From contig JAFUZM010000088.1 of the NCBI GenBank assembly GCA_017476605.1, positions 112-64,111 on the forward strand: 64,000 nucleotides of DNA, in the 5' to 3' direction. The DNA is from Clostridia bacterium. GTDB lineage: Bacteria > Bacillota > Clostridia > Christensenellales > Aristaeellaceae. This document shows positions 6,543 to 30,288 of this stretch, piece by piece; position 1 is the first letter of the stretch, and every line of letters starts with the position of its first letter. The position numbers and the translations under genes were made by a program. Below the pieces are notes generated by a model. The model was given only the letters and a program-made list of their open reading frames with translations, was not told the origin of the DNA and ran no database searches.

Positions 6543-8309
6543 TCAAAGGTCAGATGCCGTCCTGATGATTTTTGCCGTTCCTCCATTGGCACTGATGGCC
6601 TTTTGAATGGCAGCCTGATGATCCGAGTCTACCTTATAGCTCCCGCTTGTCCGTGAATTCAGGAAATGGAGACAGAATTGCCCGCTGAAGCTGTTGTTTG
6701 TGATCACCTGCTGACCATGGGGCTGTCCGTAGATGGAGCATGCGATCCGATAACCGTTTGGCGAGGTAATCACAGCCGGACGCCGTACGTATGAGATCGC
6801 TGAAGCACTTGAAACATTGAATATTGAACAAAGCGTTGCTGTATCCGAACTGGTGGCCGGTTCAACATCCAGGTGATATCCGGCAGACTGGATATAGACG
6901 CGAAGGCTCTTTCCGGTAGCAACATCTGTCAGGGTTGCGTAATTTCCCTTTACAAAACCGATTTTTGAAAAGACGCCATTCTCTTTGGCAGTGAACCAGT
7001 CAAGAGAGTAAATATTTGCGGAATCCGCAGAATCTCCCGGATTTTGCGCGGCATCCTCGCTTTCGCTTCCACCGTTTCGAAGAGCGGCAATCGTTGCCGG
7101 GTCAAGGGTTCCGGTCTGGGAAAGACCGTTTTGCTTCTGGAACTTAATAACGGCATCTCTTGTCTTGGTTCCGAAATGACCGGTAATATCACCGCTGTAC
7201 AGCTTCATTCCTCTTAGAATCTGCTGCATCTCAGAGATCACATCTGCACGGTCACCAACGGAATATGTCCTTGTATCGCTCTGTTCCGCAGTGGTTGAGG
7301 ATGCGGCAGTAGCCTGAGACGAACTTGGGAGATTTCCATACAGGAGTGCCTGAATGGTTGAAGTGTCCGCATTTCCAGTTGCACTGAGGCCGACAGCTTT
7401 CTGATATTTCCTGACAGCCGCCTCTGTCTTGCTTCCATAATGACCGGTGATGTCGCCACTGTAATACCCCAGCTGAGCCAGTCGTTTCTGAACCTCGAGC
7501 ACAAGGTCTCCGGTTGAATCAAGGCTCAGGGTTCCGCTTTCCCAGGTGGTGTCTGTCTGATTCTGAACCGCATCAGCGTTATCATATACGTTTTCCGAGC
7601 TGCTTTCCGGTTCGCTTTTCCCCTCTGCTTTTTCGCGGATCATGCGAAGCGTCGTCTCATCCAGTTCTCCTGTTGCATTTAATCCCACGCGCCGCTGGAA
7701 GGCCTTGATCGAATTGGTTGTAATTGTCCCAATATTGCCGGTGATATCACCGTAATAAATGCCCATCTCCTTCAGTGCCTGCTGGACGTACATAACGGTT
7801 TCTTTCTGGGAATTGGAAGAGTTGGCAGAACCCACGGCGTTTGTCGCTTCAGAGCTCGCCTTGACAGGCTCACTGGATGCCGAATCAATGCTTTGGGCAG
7901 ATTCCTGCCAGGCGTCAATATTGATGCGCGGGACGCCGCTTCTGGTGCCTGCCGTCTCCTCAGGCAGCATGCCAAGAGGAAGACCGAATTCATTTGAAAA
8001 CTGCTCTGCACCGAAGGTAAACACATATTCCTTGTTCCCTTCCTTTTGCGCGACCCAGCCGCTGCCGGTTTCACCATCCGCATTGATGTAGTCAACACCG
8101 ATGAACATGAGATTTCCGTTTTGTACATAGCGGCGAATAAAGACACATCTGTCCTCAAGCAGATTGTCAATGATTTCTCCGTTTAGTGAAGGCGTGGATC
8201 TCACCCGAACACGCGTCTCCGTTATTCCGTATTCGTTATCCGCAAAGCCTGCTGTCAAAATGCCCATCATCAGGGCAGCAAGGCAAAAGATCAGGATGAT
8301 TTTTTTCAT
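6543..8309 (-). CDS. Secreted protein with an SH3b domain, three PG_binding_1 repeats and a C-terminal domain of unknown function
   Basis: ORF trimmed to ATG 8309 (AGGAGG about 9 nt upstream), which opens with the signal peptide MKKIILIFCLAALMMGILTAGFA. TRVRVRSTPSLNGEII is SH3b-like. There are three copies of the peptidoglycan-binding motif (LKEMGIYYGDITGNIGTITTNSIKAFQRRVGLNATGELD; LAQLGYYSGDITGHYGSKTEAAVRKYQKAVGLSATGNAD; LRGMKLYSGDITGHFGTKTRDAVIKFQKQNGLSQTGTLD). Confidence 0.8.
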   Translation of the reverse strand: MKKIILIFCLAALMMGILTAGFADNEYGITETRVRVRSTPSLNGEIIDNLLEDRCVFIRRYVQNGNLMFIGVDYINADGETGSGWVAQKEGNKEYVFTFGAEQFSNEFGLPLGMLPEETAGTRSGVPRINIDAWQESAQSIDSASSEPVKASSEATNAVGSANSSNSQKETVMYVQQALKEMGIYYGDITGNIGTITTNSIKAFQRRVGLNATGELDETTLRMIREKAEGKSEPESSSENVYDNADAVQNQTDTTWESGTLSLDSTGDLVLEVQKRLAQLGYYSGDITGHYGSKTEAAVRKYQKAVGLSATGNADTSTIQALLYGNLPSSSQATAASSTTAEQSDTRTYSVGDRADVISEMQQILRGMKLYSGDITGHFGTKTRDAVIKFQKQNGLSQTGTLDPATIAALRNGGSESEDAAQNPGDSADSANIYSLDWFTAKENGVFSKIGFVKGNYATLTDVATGKSLRVYIQSAGYHLDVEPATSSDTATLCSIFNVSSASAISYVRRPAVITSPNGYRIACSIYGQPHGQQVITNNSFSGQFCLHFLNSRTSGSYKVDSDHQAAIQKAISANGGTAKIIRTASDL

Positions 8310-22879: not shown

Positions 22880-24133
22880 TCAGAATTTGCCCTTTCCCAG
22901 CCGTCGTTTCGTGTTCCAGGCAGAAATACGAGGCCATATAAGTTTTCTGAAGATGACAAGTAAGACAACGAAAATGAGTATTCCGGGAATATTTGAGGCA
23001 ACCCACAGGCAAAAGCTTTGTACGCCTTCGACAAAGCTGCTGAGGCCAAGACTAAAGGCGGCGGCCACACGTTCGCCAAAGGACAGTGTTTTGGTTTCGA
23101 CAACATCCTGGCTCTTCTCCTCACGAACGGAAATATCAACGGTAGAATACTGAACATATCGATCCGTTGACTGGAGACTGCCCTTCAGGGAATCAATTTT
23201 GTACTGTGTTTCGGCAATCTGTTCTTCAAGTGAGAGCAGATCTGACAACTTGCTTGTCGTTCCGACAAGGCTTTGAAGGCGCTCCAGGAGCAGCTCCTGA
23301 GTGTGTAAACGCGTTTCCCGATCATGATAGCTTTCGGTTACATCCTCTGCTGTTTCATTTTGGCTGACGACACGTGCCAGACTTGCTGTGCCACGCAAAA
23401 ACTCATCTAGTTTTTCTGCAGGAATCCGCAGTGAAAGTGAAGCACGCTTAAGGCCGGAGGAAGCAGAATCAATGCTTGACTGACCAATCCATCCCCCATT
23501 GCTTATGCACAATGTTCGAATGGATTCGACGCATTCTTCAAATTCTGTTGTTGCCAATGTCATGGATGCGGTCCGAATGATCTTCTTATCACTTAAATTG
23601 GTCAATTCACTCATGTCATTCGAAAGATCTGCAGTGCCAAGACCGGAATCTATTGCAGCAGAATATGCCATGTTGCTTTCAAACATCGCCTCCTCTGCTT
23701 CATAGGCCGATTCATAATCATCGTCATATGCAGAATTATAAAGAGAAGATGTCCTCACCTTGGAATTGCCTGTCATCTGATTTCTGCTGGCGTTTATGTT
23801 CCGGGATGACCAAATTCCACCAATGCCAAGACAGATCACTGCAGCAGCTGCAATTGCAAGGCCGTTGCGCAATCCTCTCTTCCGCTTCTGTTTTCCCGGC
23901 TGCTTCGTCTCACGGATAGCATTCATCCATTTTGTGTGTGCAGATTCTGGCATTTCCGGGACATCTGTATTCTTCATTTCCTCAAGATATGAATGAACTG
24001 TATCGGATGCACTGCGCATCTTTTTGCAATCCAGACAGGTTTCCTCATGTTCATTCATCATTTCGAGAATCGTGTCTGAAGCGTTTTCTGTTTCATATTC
24101 GGAGAGTAATTTCCTGTATTCCTCGCATGTCAT
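22880..24133 (-). CDS. Anti-sigma factor: N-terminal zf-HC2, one TM, extracytoplasmic DUF4349-like domain with C-terminal TM helices
   Basis: MTCEEYRKLLSEY...HEETCLDCKKM is the HxxxCxxC anti-sigma zinc motif. TM segment LAIAAAAVICLGIGGIW. A coiled region (RLHTQELLLERLQSL...EEQIAETQYKIDSLKG) and terminal hydrophobic helices, as in DUF4349. It lies 17 nt downstream of the sigma gene. Confidence 0.7.
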   Translation of the reverse strand: MTCEEYRKLLSEYETENASDTILEMMNEHEETCLDCKKMRSASDTVHSYLEEMKNTDVPEMPESAHTKWMNAIRETKQPGKQKRKRGLRNGLAIAAAAVICLGIGGIWSSRNINASRNQMTGNSKVRTSSLYNSAYDDDYESAYEAEEAMFESNMAYSAAIDSGLGTADLSNDMSELTNLSDKKIIRTASMTLATTEFEECVESIRTLCISNGGWIGQSSIDSASSGLKRASLSLRIPAEKLDEFLRGTASLARVVSQNETAEDVTESYHDRETRLHTQELLLERLQSLVGTTSKLSDLLSLEEQIAETQYKIDSLKGSLQSTDRYVQYSTVDISVREEKSQDVVETKTLSFGERVAAAFSLGLSSFVEGVQSFCLWVASNIPGILIFVVLLVIFRKLIWPRISAWNTKRRLGKGKF

Positions 24134-24150: not shown

Positions 24151-24726
24151 TTATTGTCCTAAAACGTATTCTCTCATTTTTTCTCTTGCGCGTGCGATGC
24201 GGCTTTTAACGGTTCCGACTGAGACCTCAGTTTCCTCAGAAATCTCCTGATAACTCTTGTCCTCCACCGCATAGAGAATCAGAGAAACACGTTGTTCACT
24301 GCTTAAACGATCCAGCGCAGCTTGAACCGTTTCCATTTCTTCCTTACGGATGATTTGTGTTTCCGGTGTCACAGAATCCTCTTTCTGATGTCCAAGATTA
24401 TCCTCGCTTACATCGGATTCCTGCAGAGCAACGCGTTTTTGTTCTCGATCTATACGCCGCAGCAAGTCTGTGCATGAGTTTATGCCAATCCGATAAAGCC
24501 ATGTTTCAAACGAGGCTTCTCCACGGAATGAGCCAATTTTCTCCCATGCCTTCACCATTGTTGTTTGTAACGCTTCCTCGGCGTCGTGAAGGTTTCCCAT
24601 CATGTGAAAACAGAGTCTCCATATCTTTTTCTCTAATGGTGTAACCAATTGTTCAAATGCTTCCGGATTTCCGTTTACGGCGCGTTTTAACATAAGCTCG
24701 TTTACCAATTGTTTCACCCCTTTCAT
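24151..24726 (-). CDS. ECF-type RNA polymerase sigma-70 factor
   Basis: Region 2 (AFEQLVTPLEKKIWRLCFHMMGN..DAEEALQTTMVKAWEKI..F..WLYRIGINSCTDLLRR) and region 4 (SYQEISEETEVSVGTVKSRIARAREKMR). The start codon is uncertain: ATG 24726 has a weak RBS, and downstream TTG/ATG alternatives exist. Confidence 0.8.
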   Translation of the reverse strand: MKGVKQLVNELMLKRAVNGNPEAFEQLVTPLEKKIWRLCFHMMGNLHDAEEALQTTMVKAWEKIGSFRGEASFETWLYRIGINSCTDLLRRIDREQKRVALQESDVSEDNLGHQKEDSVTPETQIIRKEEMETVQAALDRLSSEQRVSLILYAVEDKSYQEISEETEVSVGTVKSRIARAREKMREYVLGQ

Positions 24727-24777
24727 TTGCGATTCAACCTTTAGACGTAACTGCTCAGCGGATTGTTCCCTTGTTGA

Positions 24778-24805
24778 ATAAAAAAAGGAGGATTTCTCCT
24801 CCTTT
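24778..24805 (-). terminator. Rho-independent terminator after the His/Gly-rich gene, built from the SD-like end of repeat copy E
   Basis: Minus strand reads AAGGAGGA-GAAA-TCCTCCTT followed by TTTTTAT. Confidence 0.6.
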
Positions 24806-24903: not shown

Positions 24904-25194
24904 TTAGAAATGACGACCAGCGCCGCCGCCACGAGAATGGCCACCGCCAAAGCCACCCATGTGACCGCCGCCGAAACCACCCATACGACCACCACCAAAG
25001 CCGCCCATGTGGCCAAAACCACCCATGGGTCCAAAGCTACCAAAATTGCCGTGATAGAAATTGTGGGGATGATGATAGTGCGGATGGTCATACATGTGAA
25101 TACCGAAGAACGGATCACGGTAGAATGTCCTTCTCCTCGGACGATCATTGAAAACAGCACACAGAATCAAAAACAATACGATAATGCTCAACAT
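24904..25194 (-). CDS. 96-aa single-pass membrane mini-protein, His/Gly/Met-rich (putative metal-binding)
   Basis: ATG 25194 lies 8 nt after AGGAGG. The track's GTG 25212 would place the SD inside the ORF. The protein is MLSIIVLFLILCAVF (TM), then HMYDHPHYHHPHNFYH, then MGGFGH/MGGFGGGR/MGGFGGGH/MGGFGGGH repeats, with 11 His in total. A riboswitch lies upstream and a terminator downstream on the same strand. The overlapping ORFs 24771..25151(+), 24859..25200(+) and 24876..25160(-) are repeat shadows. Confidence 0.6.
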   Translation of the reverse strand: MLSIIVLFLILCAVFNDRPRRRTFYRDPFFGIHMYDHPHYHHPHNFYHGNFGSFGPMGGFGHMGGFGGGRMGGFGGGHMGGFGGGHSRGGGAGRHF

Positions 25195-25254
25195 TTGTAG
25201 TTCCTCCTTCACTTAAGTCATTTTGTGGGGTTCCTGTACAAATGAATGATCTGA

Positions 25255-25299
25255 ATACAAAAAAGACTTGTACCATGATCACTCATGTACAAGTCTTGC
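25255..25299 (-). terminator. Intrinsic terminator serving as the riboswitch expression platform
   Basis: Minus strand reads AAGACUUGUAC-N13-GUACAAGUCUU followed by UUUUUGUAUU. The 5' arm overlaps the aptamer's GCAAGAC loop and the 3' strand of P1. Confidence 0.65.
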
Positions 25300-25378
25300 C
25301 TTCTCATTTGAACCGGATGTTTTCACATCGGCTGACGGTGTCAAATCCACCTTTCGGTGATTGGCTACTCCCCTGTCA
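25289..25378 (-). promoter_or_regulatory. yybP-ykoY family (Mn2+) riboswitch aptamer
   Basis: Minus strand reads GACAGGGGAGUAGCCAAUCACCGAAAGGUGGAUUUGACACCGUCAGCCGAUGUGAAAACAUCCGGUUCAAAUGAGAAGGCAAGACUUGU. It carries the hallmark GGGGAGUAGC, UUGACA and GCAAGAC motifs, a closing helix ACAGG/CUUGU, and GAAA-capped hairpins. Compared from memory with the L. lactis Mn2+ riboswitch (AAAGGGGAGUAGC...UUGACA...AGCAAGACCUUU). Confidence 0.65.
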
Positions 25379-25385
25379 CGATGTA

Positions 25386-25414
25386 ATGATATTCCTTTTT
25401 CACATCCTTGTCAA
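25386..25414 (-). promoter_or_regulatory. Sigma-A promoter of the riboswitch transcript
   Basis: Minus strand reads TTGACA-17 nt-TATCAT, about 10 nt upstream of the aptamer. Confidence 0.6.
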
Positions 25415-25475: not shown

Positions 25476-27008
25476 TCAGTTCCAAAGCTCAACGGCTTCG
25501 TCTATCCATTCTTTTTGCTGCCTGAGAAACGCAATATCATAGTCTACCTCATCCTGAACAGGCTGCGACCATGTTCCCCACCTCAGGTCATTCATCTTTC
25601 TGCTTTTCTCAATCGCTTCCCCATGCTGCTCAAGCAATGAAAGCAGATCCGAGGTCAGAGATTCGCAAATGGAGGAGGTTACAGACTGCCAGCGCGTTTT
25701 ATATGCCTGCCGGAAGACAGCGGTATCAAACAGCTGAGCATAGTATCTTGAGGTATCCAGATGAGGACGACTCCATCCCGGAACATCTGGCATCCAGGTC
25801 CTTGAAGCGCCAAGCACTGCATCAAAATCCCACATGGGTCCAATCGTGATTTTGTTGTCTGTGCCGACAGCCTGGCGCAGGTGTTTAATGGAATAGTACA
25901 TATTGCTCCCTGTTACGTCTCCCTGTCTCAGAATATCCTGAACAATGATCCAGTTGACAAAGGAATCAATGTCAAGCATTTCCCATACAGATTCGTCTCT
26001 GCCTTCGATCCTGCCCGTAAAATCATCAATGAGTTGTGTCAGTGTTTGAAATCGCATATCCTGAGCATTTGTAATATCCGGATACTTTACGGTAAACGCA
26101 ACGGCATAATCCTGACCGGGCGCTCTGTGATATAGCTCCTCACTCCACCAGTACAAATCATTTTCGAAAATGGATCCGTCATACCCGATATTGACCCTGT
26201 TCTCTGCGCGGCTGACCGTTTCTGAAAGGTAATAAATCCCCTTCCAGTCATCATTCAGGATGACGTTTACCAGCGTGCACGCGGGCGAGTAATCAAGTTC
26301 GATCAGGTTTGAAAGAAGATTTCCTACGTAGAGATTGAGATTTCCTCCGCAGTTCAGGAGAACCCATTCTTTATTCGCATGGGATTTGCCCCGCCCAAGC
26401 AAGTCCTCCTTGTCTTTGAGGTTCAATTTGTAGGAAACCTTTTCTTTGGATGTTGAACTTGTATTTCCGCGAATCCGAATCTCGGATCGAAGCGTAACGG
26501 ATGGTCTGTCGGGAAAATCAAGAACGACGACTGCCTTTTCGAGGGAATGATCAATCGTCGTCATTCCACGGGCATTTTCCGGCGCTGCAAGAAAATTGCA
26601 GGTAGGCTCCTCGCCGGAAAGTGTCGTAATCCGCACCACCGGCAGATCCGGGAGGGCCTCGGCATCATACAGATACAGTTCTTTATGAATGTCCTGCGTA
26701 TTGCCGCTGGCATATTCAATTTGTGCGTCTACAAGGTATGTTTTGTTGAGTTCACCGGCAAATGTCCACATCCGTTCATTCCGATCAAGCACATGCTGCG
26801 TGACTTGCCCGTCATCATCTATCTGCAGAGTGACACGATCAATCACGTTTTCAATATTTCCGGTCAACTCCGCAATAATCGTGTCATGGTCACGCCCGAT
26901 TCGCAGATCCCCGTCGTCACCATTTCCGTATCCAAAATACAGAGCAAGCATCATTCCGGCAGAAAGAAGGAAAAAGCATAGCTGTATCCACTTTTTTATG
27001 TTTCCCAC
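25476..27008 (-). CDS. CotH kinase family protein (membrane-anchored, extracytoplasmic)
   Basis: 510 aa with an N-terminal anchor WIQLCFFLLSAGMMLALYF. CotH-like blocks: KVSYKLNLKD, KEWVLLNCGGNLNLYVGNLLSN, WKGIYYLSETVSRAENRVNI, MYYSIKH...GPMWDFDAVLG. GTG start next to GGAAGGGAG. Confidence 0.75.
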   Translation of the reverse strand: MGNIKKWIQLCFFLLSAGMMLALYFGYGNGDDGDLRIGRDHDTIIAELTGNIENVIDRVTLQIDDDGQVTQHVLDRNERMWTFAGELNKTYLVDAQIEYASGNTQDIHKELYLYDAEALPDLPVVRITTLSGEEPTCNFLAAPENARGMTTIDHSLEKAVVVLDFPDRPSVTLRSEIRIRGNTSSTSKEKVSYKLNLKDKEDLLGRGKSHANKEWVLLNCGGNLNLYVGNLLSNLIELDYSPACTLVNVILNDDWKGIYYLSETVSRAENRVNIGYDGSIFENDLYWWSEELYHRAPGQDYAVAFTVKYPDITNAQDMRFQTLTQLIDDFTGRIEGRDESVWEMLDIDSFVNWIIVQDILRQGDVTGSNMYYSIKHLRQAVGTDNKITIGPMWDFDAVLGASRTWMPDVPGWSRPHLDTSRYYAQLFDTAVFRQAYKTRWQSVTSSICESLTSDLLSLLEQHGEAIEKSRKMNDLRWGTWSQPVQDEVDYDIAFLRQQKEWIDEAVELWN

Positions 27009-27035
27009 ACTCCCTTCCTGGACGTATGCTCTCTG

Positions 27036-27710
27036 TTAGAAGGTGACCTCTCCATCATGGGACAGAAGAGCAGCTGAACAGACGCCAGGCAGATTCATGA
27101 CATCCTTGACCAGTTCTTTCCCGTGATCTGTCCGTACCTCTACTGTCAGGTCAACGGTTGTTGACGTCAGATTTCTCGATTTGACGTTTGAGTATCTGGC
27201 ATAACGCGATACGGTTGACATGACATCTGTTTCGATTTCTGCATTGCTTGCATTGACCACAAGGATCATCGGTGCCTTTGCAATCGGAAGATGAGCCAGT
27301 ACAAACAGACCGATTGTAAGCCCCAGAGACAGGATCATCGCAATCTCTGCAAGACCAGCGCCGCAGATAATTCCGATGGAAATCGACCAGAACAGAAACA
27401 TAAGGTCCATGGGATCCTTGATCGCCGTTCTGAAACGCACAATGGACAGGGCACCAACCATTCCGAGGGAAACAACAACACTTGACTGAACCGTCAGAAT
27501 GATTGCTGCGGTAATCACAGATACGCCCACCAGAGAAAGATTAAAGCTTTTTGAGTAAAATGTCTTTCTGGTCATGAACTGATACAGAAAAAACACATAC
27601 ACGGCCAGCAGGAAGGTGATGGCAATGGTTGAGATGGCCGCTGTGATTCCGATTTCTGTTCCTGACCATCCTTCAAGAAACGATTTTTTAAAAATATCCT
27701 GAAATGACAT
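27036..27710 (-). CDS. DUF4956 domain membrane protein
   Basis: 224 aa, 4-5 TM segments. Characteristic SLGMVGALSIVRFRTAIKDPMDLMFLFWSISIGI block, and a soluble C-terminal alpha/beta domain. Confidence 0.75.
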   Translation of the reverse strand: MSFQDIFKKSFLEGWSGTEIGITAAISTIAITFLLAVYVFFLYQFMTRKTFYSKSFNLSLVGVSVITAAIILTVQSSVVVSLGMVGALSIVRFRTAIKDPMDLMFLFWSISIGIICGAGLAEIAMILSLGLTIGLFVLAHLPIAKAPMILVVNASNAEIETDVMSTVSRYARYSNVKSRNLTSTTVDLTVEVRTDHGKELVKDVMNLPGVCSAALLSHDGEVTF

Positions 27711-27741
27711 AGGTTTTCTCCGATTTCTATGCTTGCTTGCA

Positions 27742-28434
27742 TTACATGCTGTATTTCCGGCAAAGATAATACTTTGAAAAAGTTGTCTGCTGCAATGTGT
27801 TCAGCTGCAGTGCACGATGAATGACATCCGGAAGGTATTCATCGAATTTTACCTCCATCAGCTGCATCCCGGTCGGCAGAACGGGTCGCTTTGTGATCGT
27901 CTCCTCAAAAAAGCGATGCAGCTCTTTTGAGGAGGAGATGGAAGTGTCAAATGTTACCCGAACATTTCCCAAAGGGTACACATAGGGAATCCGATCATAG
28001 TCCACGATAATAACCGGATGCATTCGATTTCCCAGCATATCCGCAATCAGTTCCTGTACCAGTTGGGGACACGCTGACGGGTTTCCCATCTCACCGGAGA
28101 TCAGCTGATCCGCCAGATCTCTGGTCAGTTCACAGGAGAGTTTACGCGTCTTGTTCCTCTCCTTATGCTTTCGTTCCAGATGAATCACGCTGTCTTGGTG
28201 GTTATAGATGCGAATCCGGTATTTGGCCCTTGGATCATGTCCGTTTTCATTTTCATAATAGCACCGGTTGTATTGGTCATCAAAGTATAAGCTCCGAATC
28301 GCATACTGCCCGGATATGGCATGCGGATCAATTTTCATGAGGCCTTGGATCCGCGCTCGCAAGATCGCAATTTCCGCGGAGGAAACCAGATATTTGAGTT
28401 CATGCCTGTATTTTGGATACTCATCTCTCTGCAT
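27742..28434 (-). CDS. VTC-domain (polyphosphate polymerase-like, triphosphate tunnel metalloenzyme fold) protein
   Basis: 230 aa. Tunnel-strand motifs: YRHELKYLV, IRSLYFD, KYRIRIY, LERKHK, VRVTFD, LMEVKFD. Confidence 0.75.
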   Translation of the reverse strand: MQRDEYPKYRHELKYLVSSAEIAILRARIQGLMKIDPHAISGQYAIRSLYFDDQYNRCYYENENGHDPRAKYRIRIYNHQDSVIHLERKHKERNKTRKLSCELTRDLADQLISGEMGNPSACPQLVQELIADMLGNRMHPVIIVDYDRIPYVYPLGNVRVTFDTSISSSKELHRFFEETITKRPVLPTGMQLMEVKFDEYLPDVIHRALQLNTLQQTTFSKYYLCRKYSM

Positions 28435-28440
28435 TTACTG

Positions 28441-30288
28441 TCACCTCACTCCCCTCTTATGTCTGCTGCTTTCGGAAGAAACAGAGCGACAGATCAGGAG
28501 CATCAAAAGCACGAGCATTGCGCCAATGCTCAAGAGTGTAATCTGAACGGATCGGTTTGACAGCATGGATGTTTCCTGTGCATCTTCTGTCTCAGGCTCT
28601 CTTTCAATATGCAATACTGTATCTTTCAGAATCGGGAGGTGCGGATCAAATCGTTCACCGGTTTCGGCGTCTATCCAAACCTGATCATAGGAATCCAGGT
28701 CACGCCCCCAAAGCGTATTCAGGGTCTCTCCCTTTTTTACTGAACAGGTATAGTAATACAAATTGTATGCGTATTCAATTTGTACGGTACAATACTCAGC
28801 CTGATCAATCCAGATTTCATTTAAAAACTTGACCCGGTCTTTTAGGTAATTCAGAACTCTGGTACTGTCAATCTCTTCCTCATCGTCATACCAGCGTATT
28901 TTATTCATCTGGGAGGCTTTGAAAATCCTTTTTTCCACTTCCTCTATCTCGCCATTCAGCATCCGTTCAAGAACCGGCAGAAAGTCCTTCTTATAGACTT
29001 TGATCACCTGGTTATAGAACTGAGGATTGTGATAAAGGTGAGAAAAATAGGGCGTTTCCATCGTCCTGGATTCAGCAAACGTAGCGGCATAAAGCGCACG
29101 AGGATTTGCATTTCTCGTGGCATAGTTTCCATATGCCTGGTCATAATCCCAGGGAGGCCCTGCATAAAATACTTGCCCATTCTCTGTATGTATACAGTAA
29201 AAGTAACTGCTTGCCAGGTCTGCATCCGGATTTGCAGATATTTCCTCAATCAGATATTTCCTTACCCAGGACTCCATGTCGATTGTATCAAAATCATCCG
29301 CCTGAATCGCATCCTCCATCCGGTCAACTTCCTCAAGAATTTGCTTTTTCCGGACTGTAGATGTTTTTGAAGGATCTGAAATCACAAATACTCGTCCGGT
29401 TTTCGTGCGCATTGGTTGCACCAGATCATGCCAGCGGACCTCGGGCTCATTTTTAAAAAGATAGTTTTTGAGGGACAGCTTGCCGTCACTCATGATATTC
29501 AAACGGTTTTTCCCAATTTCTACCTTTTCTGTGAGTAAATACAGGCCATTGTATTCCCCGTTTATATAGAGATCGGCAAACCGGTACCCGGGAGTCCACA
29601 TTCCTACGGCCTGGGCCAGATTGAAAGTGAGGATGTTTCGTAAATTGGTGCTGTCAACCGTATTGGAGATGAGGTTCCATTTTTTGGCAGAGCTCAACCC
29701 AAGAAGCTCATCCTCACTTGAAAACTCCCATGTGTAGGATTTCTTTTCGCTTGCCCACGAAGCCTGCCCACGGCCTTTCAGCGTCCCGATTTTGTCTTTA
29801 AATTCCTGTTCTCCTGAGGAATCTACGACGGTTCCCAGTGTCTTTTCTTTAAAACTCTTGTCGGAATGGATTCGATCCAGTGTCCCGGATTTTGTGTCAA
29901 GAAAGATGGTTGCCGTATTCTCGGATTGTAAAAAGGTGATGGCTGTTTTTTCTGATTCTTCCTTGCCCTGAATCGTTATCTCATACGTTTGATCACAAGC
30001 TAAATCAGATAAATGCTGTTCGTTTGTGAGCAAATGCCCATCAATATAAACGGACGCATTCTTGCTTATTACGGGTTTCAGTTGATCAAAGCGTGCGTAT
30101 GAAGGTAAAAATACATAATACATCTTTCCGTCATCCCACACTTTGATCGGATTCGCATCGCCTGCAGAGGTGGAAAGCAGGAAATAAAACGGGTCTTCCG
30201 CCCATTCCTCATCCTCCAGCCGTTTCGCAATTCCCGCTAAAAGCACAAGAAATATTGCGAGAAAAACCATCCATCCAAATTTTTTCAA
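28441..30288 (-). CDS. CotH kinase family protein with N- and C-terminal membrane anchors
   Basis: 615 aa with an N-terminal anchor FGWMVFLAIFLVLLAGI. CotH blocks: KKSYTWEF, KKWNLISN, LYINGEYNGLYLLTEKVEIGKNRLNI, SYFYCIH...AGPPWDYDQAYG. C-terminal TM segment ITLLSIGAMLVLLMLLI. TTG start (weak RBS), so the exact start is uncertain. Confidence 0.75.
   Translation of the reverse strand: MKKFGWMVFLAIFLVLLAGIAKRLEDEEWAEDPFYFLLSTSAGDANPIKVWDDGKMYYVFLPSYARFDQLKPVISKNASVYIDGHLLTNEQHLSDLACDQTYEITIQGKEESEKTAITFLQSENTATIFLDTKSGTLDRIHSDKSFKEKTLGTVVDSSGEQEFKDKIGTLKGRGQASWASEKKSYTWEFSSEDELLGLSSAKKWNLISNTVDSTNLRNILTFNLAQAVGMWTPGYRFADLYINGEYNGLYLLTEKVEIGKNRLNIMSDGKLSLKNYLFKNEPEVRWHDLVQPMRTKTGRVFVISDPSKTSTVRKKQILEEVDRMEDAIQADDFDTIDMESWVRKYLIEEISANPDADLASSYFYCIHTENGQVFYAGPPWDYDQAYGNYATRNANPRALYAATFAESRTMETPYFSHLYHNPQFYNQVIKVYKKDFLPVLERMLNGEIEEVEKRIFKASQMNKIRWYDDEEEIDSTRVLNYLKDRVKFLNEIWIDQAEYCTVQIEYAYNLYYYTCSVKKGETLNTLWGRDLDSYDQVWIDAETGERFDPHLPILKDTVLHIEREPETEDAQETSMLSNRSVQITLLSIGAMLVLLMLLICRSVSSESSRHKRGVR

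Follow-up and report, generated by a model that had tools for sequence, protein, structure and literature searches.

What kind of RNA stands in front of the gene for a 96-aa protein in the Clostridia bacterium contig JAFUZM010000088.1, and what does it sense and drive? The gene and its leader lie on the minus strand of the 64,000-nt stretch analysed here (positions 112 to 64,111 of the contig, hereafter the window). An earlier note on this DNA, made from the sequence alone, had assigned the leader to the Mn2+-responsive yybP-ykoY riboswitches and had placed a small protein, instead of a known Mn exporter, under its control. In our analysis the most fitting description of this leader is that of a new structural variant of the yybP-ykoY riboswitch, without helix P4, with a short alx-like L3 loop and arranged as a transcriptional ON switch. 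The reading as a whole, a monocistronic metal-responsive ON switch that would drive a membrane-held mini-protein serving as an accessory factor of the cation-stress response, was given a probability of about 0.68.

The promoter, leader, hairpin, ribosome-binding site (RBS) and 96-aa open reading frame (ORF) that had been proposed were all found on the minus strand (Table 1). Equivalent TTGACA-17-TAnAAT promoters are located at equal upstream distance in three related loci (L001, L004 and L007; related loci are given by L numbers), and the AGGAGG of the RBS is matched 6/6 in most homologous loci and 5/6 in the remainder. A mechanical ORF list opened the mini-protein frame at a GTG at 25212. As this start would enclose the RBS within the ORF, and nearly all homologues begin with ML (a few with MF or MI), the ATG at 25194 was taken as the real start.

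Members of the yybP-ykoY family are four-way junctions with a right leg, P1.1-L1-P1.2-P2, and a left leg, P4-P3.1-L3-P3.2, and the only three-way form described is alx, which is without P2 (PMC12153347, PMC12934788). The unconstrained minimum free energy (MFE) structure of the isolated 92-nt window aptamer consisted of P1.1, L1, P1.2, P2, P3.1 and P3.2 separated by the UCAGCC loop, a 5-nt linker, and the returning strands of P1.2, L1 (4 nt) and P1.1. The Escherichia coli mntP aptamer folded into the same layout, with a 7-nt bulge and, where the window has GAGAA, an additional 7-bp hairpin, P4. When 75 distinct relatives were folded singly, the P2 hairpin was followed by a P3 leg with a 5′-only bulge starting with UCA, and about 65 of the 75 formed no helix between P3.1 and AAGGCAAGAC, that is, they were without P4. 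No description of a P4-less three-way form was found in the searchable literature. The L1 internal loop, with GGGAGUAG on its 5′ side and AAGA(C) on its 3′ side, was present between P1.1 and P1.2 (25372-25363 and 25300-25293); the block aligned to the Rfam model RF00080 at top posterior probability, and its arrangement was identical to GGGGAGUAGCC...GGCGAGACC of mntP. Position 3 of L3 (A25333), the presumed metal-coordinating residue, is an adenosine, as in the L3 sequences ACAUACU and UCAUUAC. The family has a G-C pair in P3.1 as receptor for a cross-helix A-minor contact from L1; the three P3.1 pairs adjoining L3 (CCG/CGG), candidates for this receptor, were near-invariant among the relatives (73-76 of 76), the 3′ CGG not being part of the genome search pattern described below. 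The UUGACA that the earlier note had counted as a further hallmark proved to be a coincidence: UUUGACA forms the 5′ strand of P3.1 here, the relevant loop is UCAGCC (25335-25330), and the UUGACA of the Lactococcus lactis element presumably lies in P4.

The aptamer runs into a terminator hairpin with an 11-bp stem (AAGACUUGUAC/GUACAAGUCUU, 25297-25263) and an inner 4-bp extension, followed by a 6-U tract ending at 25259. The 129-nt leader folded at -40.1 kcal/mol (z = -3.1, with 0 of 200 shuffles as good), and the terminator was formed in that fold. The 5′ arm of the terminator is made up of AAGA, the 3′ strand of L1, together with all of the P1.1 3′ strand, and aptamer closure and termination are therefore mutually exclusive, as the earlier note had seen. 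Its ON logic also held up: as a 5-bp P1.1 faces a terminator stem of about 15 bp, the default state is predicted to be OFF, with the ligand turning the switch ON, and this predicted logic is that of the known transcriptional members. The overlap between terminator and P1.1, with a T-run 29-36 nt after AAGAC, was kept in nearly all Clostridial and Anaerolineales relatives. The TerC genes of Trueperaceae start 16-17 nt 3′ of the aptamer, which suggests translational control of those elements. Three further loci (L097, L111 and L112) carry a riboswitch with a 6-nt L3 and its terminator, followed by unrelated sequence without a mini-protein ORF, and look like rearranged or degenerate loci.

Table 1. 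Positions of the riboswitch unit and of its surroundings in the window
Feature	Position	Strand	Basis or description
Aptamer, 88-nt three-way junction	25289-25376	minus	unconstrained MFE, match to covariance model R1, covariation
P1.1	25376-25372 with 25293-25289	minus	aptamer helix, 5 bp
L1 5′ strand GGAGUA	25371-25366	minus	aptamer loop, 6 nt
P1.2 GCC/GGC	25365-25363 with 25300-25298	minus	aptamer helix
P2 CACC-GAAA-GGUG	25359-25348	minus	aptamer hairpin
P3.1	25346-25336 with 25315-25306	minus	aptamer helix
L3 UCAGCC	25335-25330	minus	5′-only asymmetric loop, without 3′ bulge
P3.2 GAUGU-GAAA-ACAUC	25329-25316	minus	aptamer hairpin
Junction GAGAA, at the position P4 would take	25305-25301	minus	5-nt purine linker
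L1 3′ strand AAGA	25297-25294	minus	aptamer loop, 4 nt
Intrinsic terminator, expression platform (5′ arm 25297-25287, 3′ arm 25273-25263, U6 tract 25264-25259)	25259-25297	minus	sequence and fold
Sigma-70-type promoter TTGACA (25414-25409), 17 nt, TATCAT (25391-25386)	25386-25414	minus	11/12 consensus matches
RBS AGGAGG, 8 nt 5′ of ATG (25194-25192)	25203-25208	minus	sequence reading
96-aa mini-protein gene: hydrophobic helix (residues 2-15), basic patch RPRRR, disordered cationic Gly/Phe/His/Met tail, end GGFGGGHSRGGGAGRHF	24904-25194	minus	homologues, purifying selection, AlphaFold2
Intrinsic terminator ending the mini-protein transcription unit	24776-24805	minus	sequence reading; 9-bp stem then T-run
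Extracytoplasmic function (ECF)-type promoter GGGAACAA-N14-16-CGTC, just past the mini-protein terminator	24744-24769	minus	motif also in L001, L010, L020, L021
ECF sigma factor gene	24151-24726	minus	downstream of mini-protein
DUF4349 anti-sigma-like protein gene	22880-24133	minus	downstream of ECF sigma
Upstream cluster: CotH (510 aa), DUF4956 (224 aa), VTC-domain protein (230 aa), second CotH (615 aa)	25476-30288	minus	domain content

A pattern made from the invariant blocks of the leader was searched in GTDB contigs, one genome per species, and gave 73 matches against about 0.5 expected by chance in our own estimate. The matches were distributed among Clostridia, Anaerolineales and other Chloroflexota, Trueperaceae, Deinococcus, Haliscomenobacter, Polynucleobacter, and a Treponemataceae metagenome-assembled genome (MAG). 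The first genes 3′ of the elements encode TerC, P-type ATPases, DedA/VTT proteins, Na_Ca_ex antiporters, flotillin (Band_7 and Flot domains), OAD_beta and mini-proteins, and Pfam confirmed TerC, VTT/DedA, Na_Ca_ex and P-type ATPase among them (for the P-type ATPase homologues of L017 and L041 the Pfam result served as a class label only). Mini-proteins of 48-103 aa were the first downstream gene in 17 species-representative genomes. The compact class as a whole is associated with cation genes, namely those for TerC, P-type ATPase, DedA and Na_Ca_ex.

A covariance model, R1, was built from 28 elements, every one of which precedes a gene for a P-type ATPase, DedA or TerC, and mini-protein leaders were kept out of it. 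In the 64-kb window R1 had a single match, the leader element at full length, with 37.3 bits (E ~ 1e-7), a score that is inflated because the seeds had been retrieved with the leader-family pattern and share its conserved blocks by construction. Over 610 kb of loci R1 detected 78 elements, one of them the E. coli mntP aptamer (25.6 bits, E ~ 1e-3), which the pattern had not selected. The interior of mntP was aligned poorly, with P4 not appearing as a clean insertion, the interior threaded differently and pairs broken; the absence of P4 therefore rests on the direct folds and the folds of single relatives. For covariation, MAFFT with RNAalifold on 42 mixed sequences recovered P1.1 and P1.2 only and mis-registered the inner hairpins, so the model-based alignment was adopted. 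In this alignment, which is fitted to the model, 94.3% of cells were in standard pairs (70% in shuffles, at most 43% with slid partners), double changes occurred in 20 of the 26 pairs, and the covariation score was 0.593, compared with 0.05-0.07 for slid controls. P1.1 had double changes in five of six pairs, a signal also visible on the plain MAFFT alignment.

The window RNA shares with the canonical RF00080 members (L. lactis yoaB, Xanthomonas oryzae, E. coli mntP) the L1 sequence GGGAGUAG...AAGAC between P1.1 and P1.2, a GCC/GGC P1.2 identical to that of mntP, a P2 hairpin, a P3 leg whose 5′-only asymmetric loop bears xCA, and a P1.1 switch helix that competes with the terminator as in an ON switch (PMC12153347), and its relatives control TerC and P-type ATPase genes. 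It differs from them in being a three-way junction of about 88 nt without P4, in its 6-nt L3, in its RF00080 score and in its cargo, an orphan mini-protein. Similarly, E. coli alx is a three-way junction with an L3 that begins with U (UCA...) (PMC12153347); however, alx keeps P4 and has a capping loop, L2, instead of P2, whereas the window RNA keeps P2 and is without P4, and alx is translational and coupled to pH, whereas the window RNA is built as a transcription terminator switch (PMC12153347, PMC12934788). The features at the core of family membership, L1, the P1.1 switch helix, an L3 with its adenosine and, for the compact class as a whole, the cargo of the relatives, are present. Three formal features are missing: an Rfam score above gathering, a four-way junction and a 7-nt L3. 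Of the assignment made earlier, the part that stands is thus a yybP-ykoY-type aptamer; that it is a standard member does not, as P4 is absent and L3 has 6 nt, not 7.

The consensus L3 of the family is ACAUACU and that of the alx-like group UCAUUAC, both of 7 nt (PMC12153347). All Clostridial mini-protein leaders had a 6-nt L3, UCA(G/U/A)CC, in which the adenosine at position 3 is kept. A 7-nt L3 beginning with U (UCAAUAC, UCAGUAC, UCAUUAC and others) was found in the relatives from Anaerolineales, Trueperaceae and Oscillibacter, 5′ of genes for TerC, P-type ATPase, DedA, Na_Ca_ex, flotillin and OAD_beta. Within the compact class L022 and L039 have exactly UCAUUAC, and in the former, from Anaerolineaceae, this alx-like L3 precedes a His-rich mini-protein. 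A metagenome scan limited to the 6-nt L3 subtype gave 37 loci, 32 with a recognisable first ORF, which belonged to the mini-protein family in 31 and was a flotillin in one. In genomes this subtype was also located 5′ of Na_Ca_ex (L013, L026), its sole cargo with a link to cation homeostasis, and one MAG carries two copies, one 5′ of Na_Ca_ex (L026) and the other 5′ of a mini-protein (L069). The most economical ligand for the 6-nt L3 subtype would be Mn2+, because the scaffold is the same and the cargo overlaps with that of the 7-nt class. Separately, elements with the L3 UCAGGAC were located 5′ of an OAD_beta homologue in a Treponemataceae MAG (L038 3452-3575) and a Lachnospiraceae MAG (L074 2023-2134); OAD_beta is the beta subunit of a Na+-transporting decarboxylase and an unexpected cargo.

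The mini-protein of the window contains 11 His and 6 Met residues and four MGGFG(G)G(H/R) repeats. A profile search retrieved at least 93 clusters of 48-163 aa, all of them unnamed or annotated as hypothetical protein and without Pfam domains. No match to DUF6376/YybP, to the NfeD partners of SPFH proteins or to any other Pfam or NCBIfam family was obtained with 18 members, and no PDB sequence matched the family profile. The homologues share the N-terminal anchor and the basic patch, and the clade of the window also has an identical end, GGFGGGHSRGGGAGRHF. Across the C-terminal 17 codons this clade showed 177 synonymous and 23 nonsynonymous codon differences, and the N-terminal anchor diverges by hydrophobic swaps; judged from these codon differences, the ORF is securely a real gene under purifying selection. 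This selection and the linkage to the RNA described below bear out the earlier proposal of a real small-protein cargo other than a known exporter, and its view that the cargo is of an undescribed class agrees with our finding no description of the mini-protein as cargo in the searchable literature. Three clusters (P0019, P0088 and P0093, 135-163 aa) are over-extended ORFs, in which the mini-protein frame has been prolonged at its 5′ end through the terminator and the riboswitch; with such ORF calls automatic annotation misses the RNA and mis-starts the gene.

AlphaFold2 predicted a helix at residues 2-15 only, with pLDDT (predicted local distance difference test) below 50 elsewhere. The pooled tails consist of 30% G, 12% F, 12% R, 10% P, 9% H, 5% M and 0.3% Cys, with net charges of +2 to +13 across members. 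Conservation is seen in the anchor, in the RRPRY-like patch that immediately follows, in a core (for example FPFMGGWGYRRPPMG) and in the G-R-x-aromatic (G-R-x-F) C-terminus. Single proteins have between 1 and 11 His residues, or 2-31% of the tail (two in L062 and one in L080b), and His-richness was rejected as a family trait. By the positive-inside rule, basic residues stay on the cytoplasmic side of the membrane, and from the position of the basic patch we infer that the tail is cytoplasmic.

The linkage of the mini-protein to the RNA was followed from both sides. In a first set of homologues every contig carries the leader upstream, with visibly compensatory changes, and in the protein-to-RNA direction the element was located 60-170 nt upstream in 8 of 10 sampled clusters. 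Flotillin is a recurrent third partner: genes for flotillins of about 470-530 aa (Band_7 and Flot) occur in about 15 distinct loci, either 3′ of the mini-protein (L035, L046, L075, L085/86, L091, L106, L110, L113, L116, L123, L125 and L127) or directly 3′ of the riboswitch (L009, L029 and L124), the mini-protein/flotillin pair of L085/86 being without the RNA. The linkage of RNA, mini-protein and flotillin is thus recurrent, and no report of flotillin as cargo of a Mn riboswitch was found.

These observations can be combined in the following mechanism. A transcript started at the housekeeping promoter would fold its first ~88 nt as the compact yybP-ykoY-type aptamer. Without ligand, the far more stable terminator would form from AAGA and the P1.1 3′ strand, and transcription would stop before the ORF. 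A divalent cation, most likely Mn2+, would bridge L1 and L3 and hold P1.1 shut during transcription, so that the terminator could not nucleate and the 96-aa gene would be transcribed. Its product, presumably membrane-held by the N-terminal helix with a cationic disordered Gly/aromatic/Pro/His tail facing the cytoplasm, may act as an accessory in the cation-stress response at the membrane, together with flotillin or by modulating a transporter, rather than as a bulk Mn2+ sponge.

Several observations weigh against this reading. An RF00080 score above the gathering cutoff had been expected in the earlier note, which had named the lack of a significant hit as a ground for abandoning the assignment. 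An Rfam 15 scan of the 64-kb window gave no gathering-level match. When 331 nt were searched locally under lax conditions, no Rfam family had a lower E value than RF00080 (E = 0.039), but the element scored 14.7 bits where the gathering score is 45, and confident alignment was limited to the GGGGAGUAGCC block. This was regarded as weak evidence and not taken as refutation, because the validated E. coli mntP aptamer, used as positive control (L081 4462-4558), also misses the cutoff with 41.6 bits. The TerC-linked, P4-less element of L039 scored 31.9 bits (E = 5.9e-5), other TerC- or P-type ATPase-linked elements with the architecture of the window element were not listed for RF00080, gathering-level scans of 18 related loci returned no RF00080 match, and 0 of 26 loci tested reached the gathering score. 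Also against the reading stand the inflated R1 score and two mini-protein clusters (L085/86 and L089/90) without such an RNA upstream, on account of which an obligatory linkage was rejected. The tail of the protein, Arg-rich and with 1.4% Asp and Glu in the pooled sequences, is a poor set of Mn2+ ligands and gives no direct functional clue. Finally, the L3 of the window is UCAGCC, of 6 nt and not 7 as in ACAUACU and UCAUUAC, and no TerC, MntP or P-type ATPase cargo was found among about 55 elements with a 6-nt L3.

The last two points are also what would speak for a specificity variant, in which a Clostridial subclass (P4-less, with a 6-nt L3, UCANCC, and a 3-nt purine J1/2) on the yybP-ykoY scaffold senses another cation (Ca2+, Fe2+, Co2+/Ni2+ or Zn2+), or Mn2+ with markedly altered tuning, and serves a dedicated regulon of mini-protein, flotillin and Na_Ca_ex. 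Compared with all described forms, its L3 is short by one nucleotide (PMC12153347), L3 identity tunes the response, loop swaps altering the response to Mn (PMC12934788), and the cargo of the subtype is mini-protein (31/32 in metagenomes), flotillin or Na_Ca_ex. However, L1, P1.2, the putative CCG/CGG receptor pairs and the adenosine at L3 position 3 are all kept, the sequences pass without a break into those of the 7-nt class, whose cargo includes TerC and P-type ATPases, and the cargo sets overlap, since 7-nt elements also control a mini-protein (L022), a flotillin (L029) and Na_Ca_ex (L024, L027, L047 and L055). A distinct subclass with altered selectivity or tuning, whose output is a membrane stress module of mini-protein, often flotillin and sometimes a Na/Ca-type exchanger, is considered unlikely. 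Far less credit is given to the view that the leader binds no ligand and is a protein-dependent or kinetic attenuator, or a small RNA, with an incidental ORF. The absence of a gathering-level Rfam match would agree with it, but in its L1 and L3 signatures the leader is identical to an aptamer class of characterised structure, five helices show strong covariation, the element recurs in at least 5 phyla 5′ of cation-transport genes, and the ORF is under strong purifying selection; this is the least probable of the explanations considered.

For the product, the earlier note had suggested that, anchored in the membrane, it buffers or sequesters Mn2+ or serves as a metallochaperone, by means of its His and Met residues. 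The composition of the window copy, with its regular MGGFGGGH repeats, the His runs of some relatives (HHHHHH in L022; also L060 and L075) and induction by a metal-sensing RNA would fit, but what selection keeps is not the number of His residues but the anchor, RRPRY patch, FPFMGGWGYRRPPMG core and G-R-x-F end. Following the Irving-Williams series, binding of Mn2+ by His and Met is weak, and Cu, Ni or Zn would be preferred. Because His-richness is not family-wide, carboxylates are near absent (Asp+Glu 1.4% of the tail) and Arg is abundant (12%, with the positive net charge given above), a Mn sponge is improbable; Hpn-like storage peptides, with high and conserved His/Cys/Asp/Glu, offer an analogy only, as the family does not have that composition. 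We tentatively favour a membrane-level accessory or modulatory role, itself held at somewhat below even odds, over metal buffering, which is rated about half as probable. MgtS, MgtR and KdpF are very small proteins tied to a cation signal that modulate transporters and are not catalytic. Likewise, MntS, a 42-aa inhibitor of the exporter MntP, is produced under MntR when Mn is low (10.1101/2023.06.02.543501). The mini-protein resembles these proteins in its small size and cation-tied expression, and theirs is the functional analogy favoured here, but an RNA would induce it at high ligand, its low-complexity tail is long, and it shows no sequence similarity to them. A precedent for non-transporter cargo is Bacillus subtilis YybP, a 148-aa lipoprotein (DUF6376) of unknown function under a Mn-type riboswitch and, like the mini-protein, small and membrane-associated (PMC13598126); the two have no sequence relationship, and YybP has an extracellular folded lipoprotein domain in contrast to the anchored, disordered cationic tail of the mini-protein.

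A different partner for the mini-protein is suggested by the genes downstream in the window. If it were co-transcribed with the ECF sigma/DUF4349 genes or served as their signal, the riboswitch would control an envelope-stress regulon. The order mini-protein, sigma, anti-sigma is kept in the window and in L001/2/6/7, L010, L020, L021 and L108, and the same clade shares the C-terminal motif GGGHSRGGGAGRHF. However, the pair is conserved only in the immediate clade of the window and was absent from every mini-protein locus examined outside it, and in 5/5 loci examined the mini-protein is followed by a terminator and then by the conserved promoter GGGAACAA-N14-16-CGTC. Co-transcription with the ECF sigma operon was rejected for this reason, and an ECF sigma module is regarded as quite improbable, though less so than a leader without ligand. 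Equivalent hairpins with a T-run are present 3′ of the mini-protein stop in L001, L010, L020 and L021, and as the ECF-type motif recurs in the same four loci, the sigma/anti-sigma genes are probably an autoregulated sigma operon.

On the upstream side, no terminator-like site was found between the CotH stop (25476) and the promoter, in agreement with the earlier note. From its domain content the CotH/DUF4956/VTC cluster may be polyphosphate-related; a link of the riboswitch unit to it was not upheld, the synteny not being conserved in the relatives examined. Some relatives have further small genes near the unit. L034 (~7504-7713) and L040 (~7163-7339, oriented coordinates) have a second small ORF of 58-69 aa 3′ of the mini-protein; it contains a single hydrophobic segment, and its acidic C-terminal end is common to both loci (...DAEWRVE, ...DDWSVR). 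In L080 the riboswitch (7851-7953, minus strand) is located 5′ of an unannotated 136-aa protein without Pfam match (oriented ORF 209-619); ~1.2 kb further downstream, the same strand encodes a member of the mini-protein family (oriented ORF 1355-1540). An unrelated SAM-I riboswitch (RF00162, 64.8 bits) is present at L039 7637-7757 (plus strand), in a Trueperaceae MAG, ~1.1 kb from the compact Mn-type element.

For the riboswitch family, the leader would represent a minimal ~88-nt, P4-less form of the largest metal-riboswitch family, occurring in Clostridia, Chloroflexota, Deinococcota, Bacteroidota and some Proteobacteria. Rfam-based annotation would miss this form because 0/26 tested loci reach the RF00080 gathering score, and gathering-level scans would miss even the textbook member mntP. 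The P4-less form is the structural complement of the alx three-way junction, which is without P2 and under active biophysical study, and would reveal what L1-L3 docking can do without in the left leg. As it was never found 5′ of a classical Mn exporter, the 6-nt L3 subtype is a concrete candidate for changed specificity on a known scaffold; if such a subclass were real, divalent-cation sensing would be linked to membrane-microdomain organisation in gut and rumen Clostridia. The mini-protein recurs behind the compact RNA in dozens of gut and rumen Clostridia, and an orphan family of at least 93 clusters would thereby be tied by an RNA to the divalent-cation stress response and to flotillin, which may provide a regulatory handle on its function.

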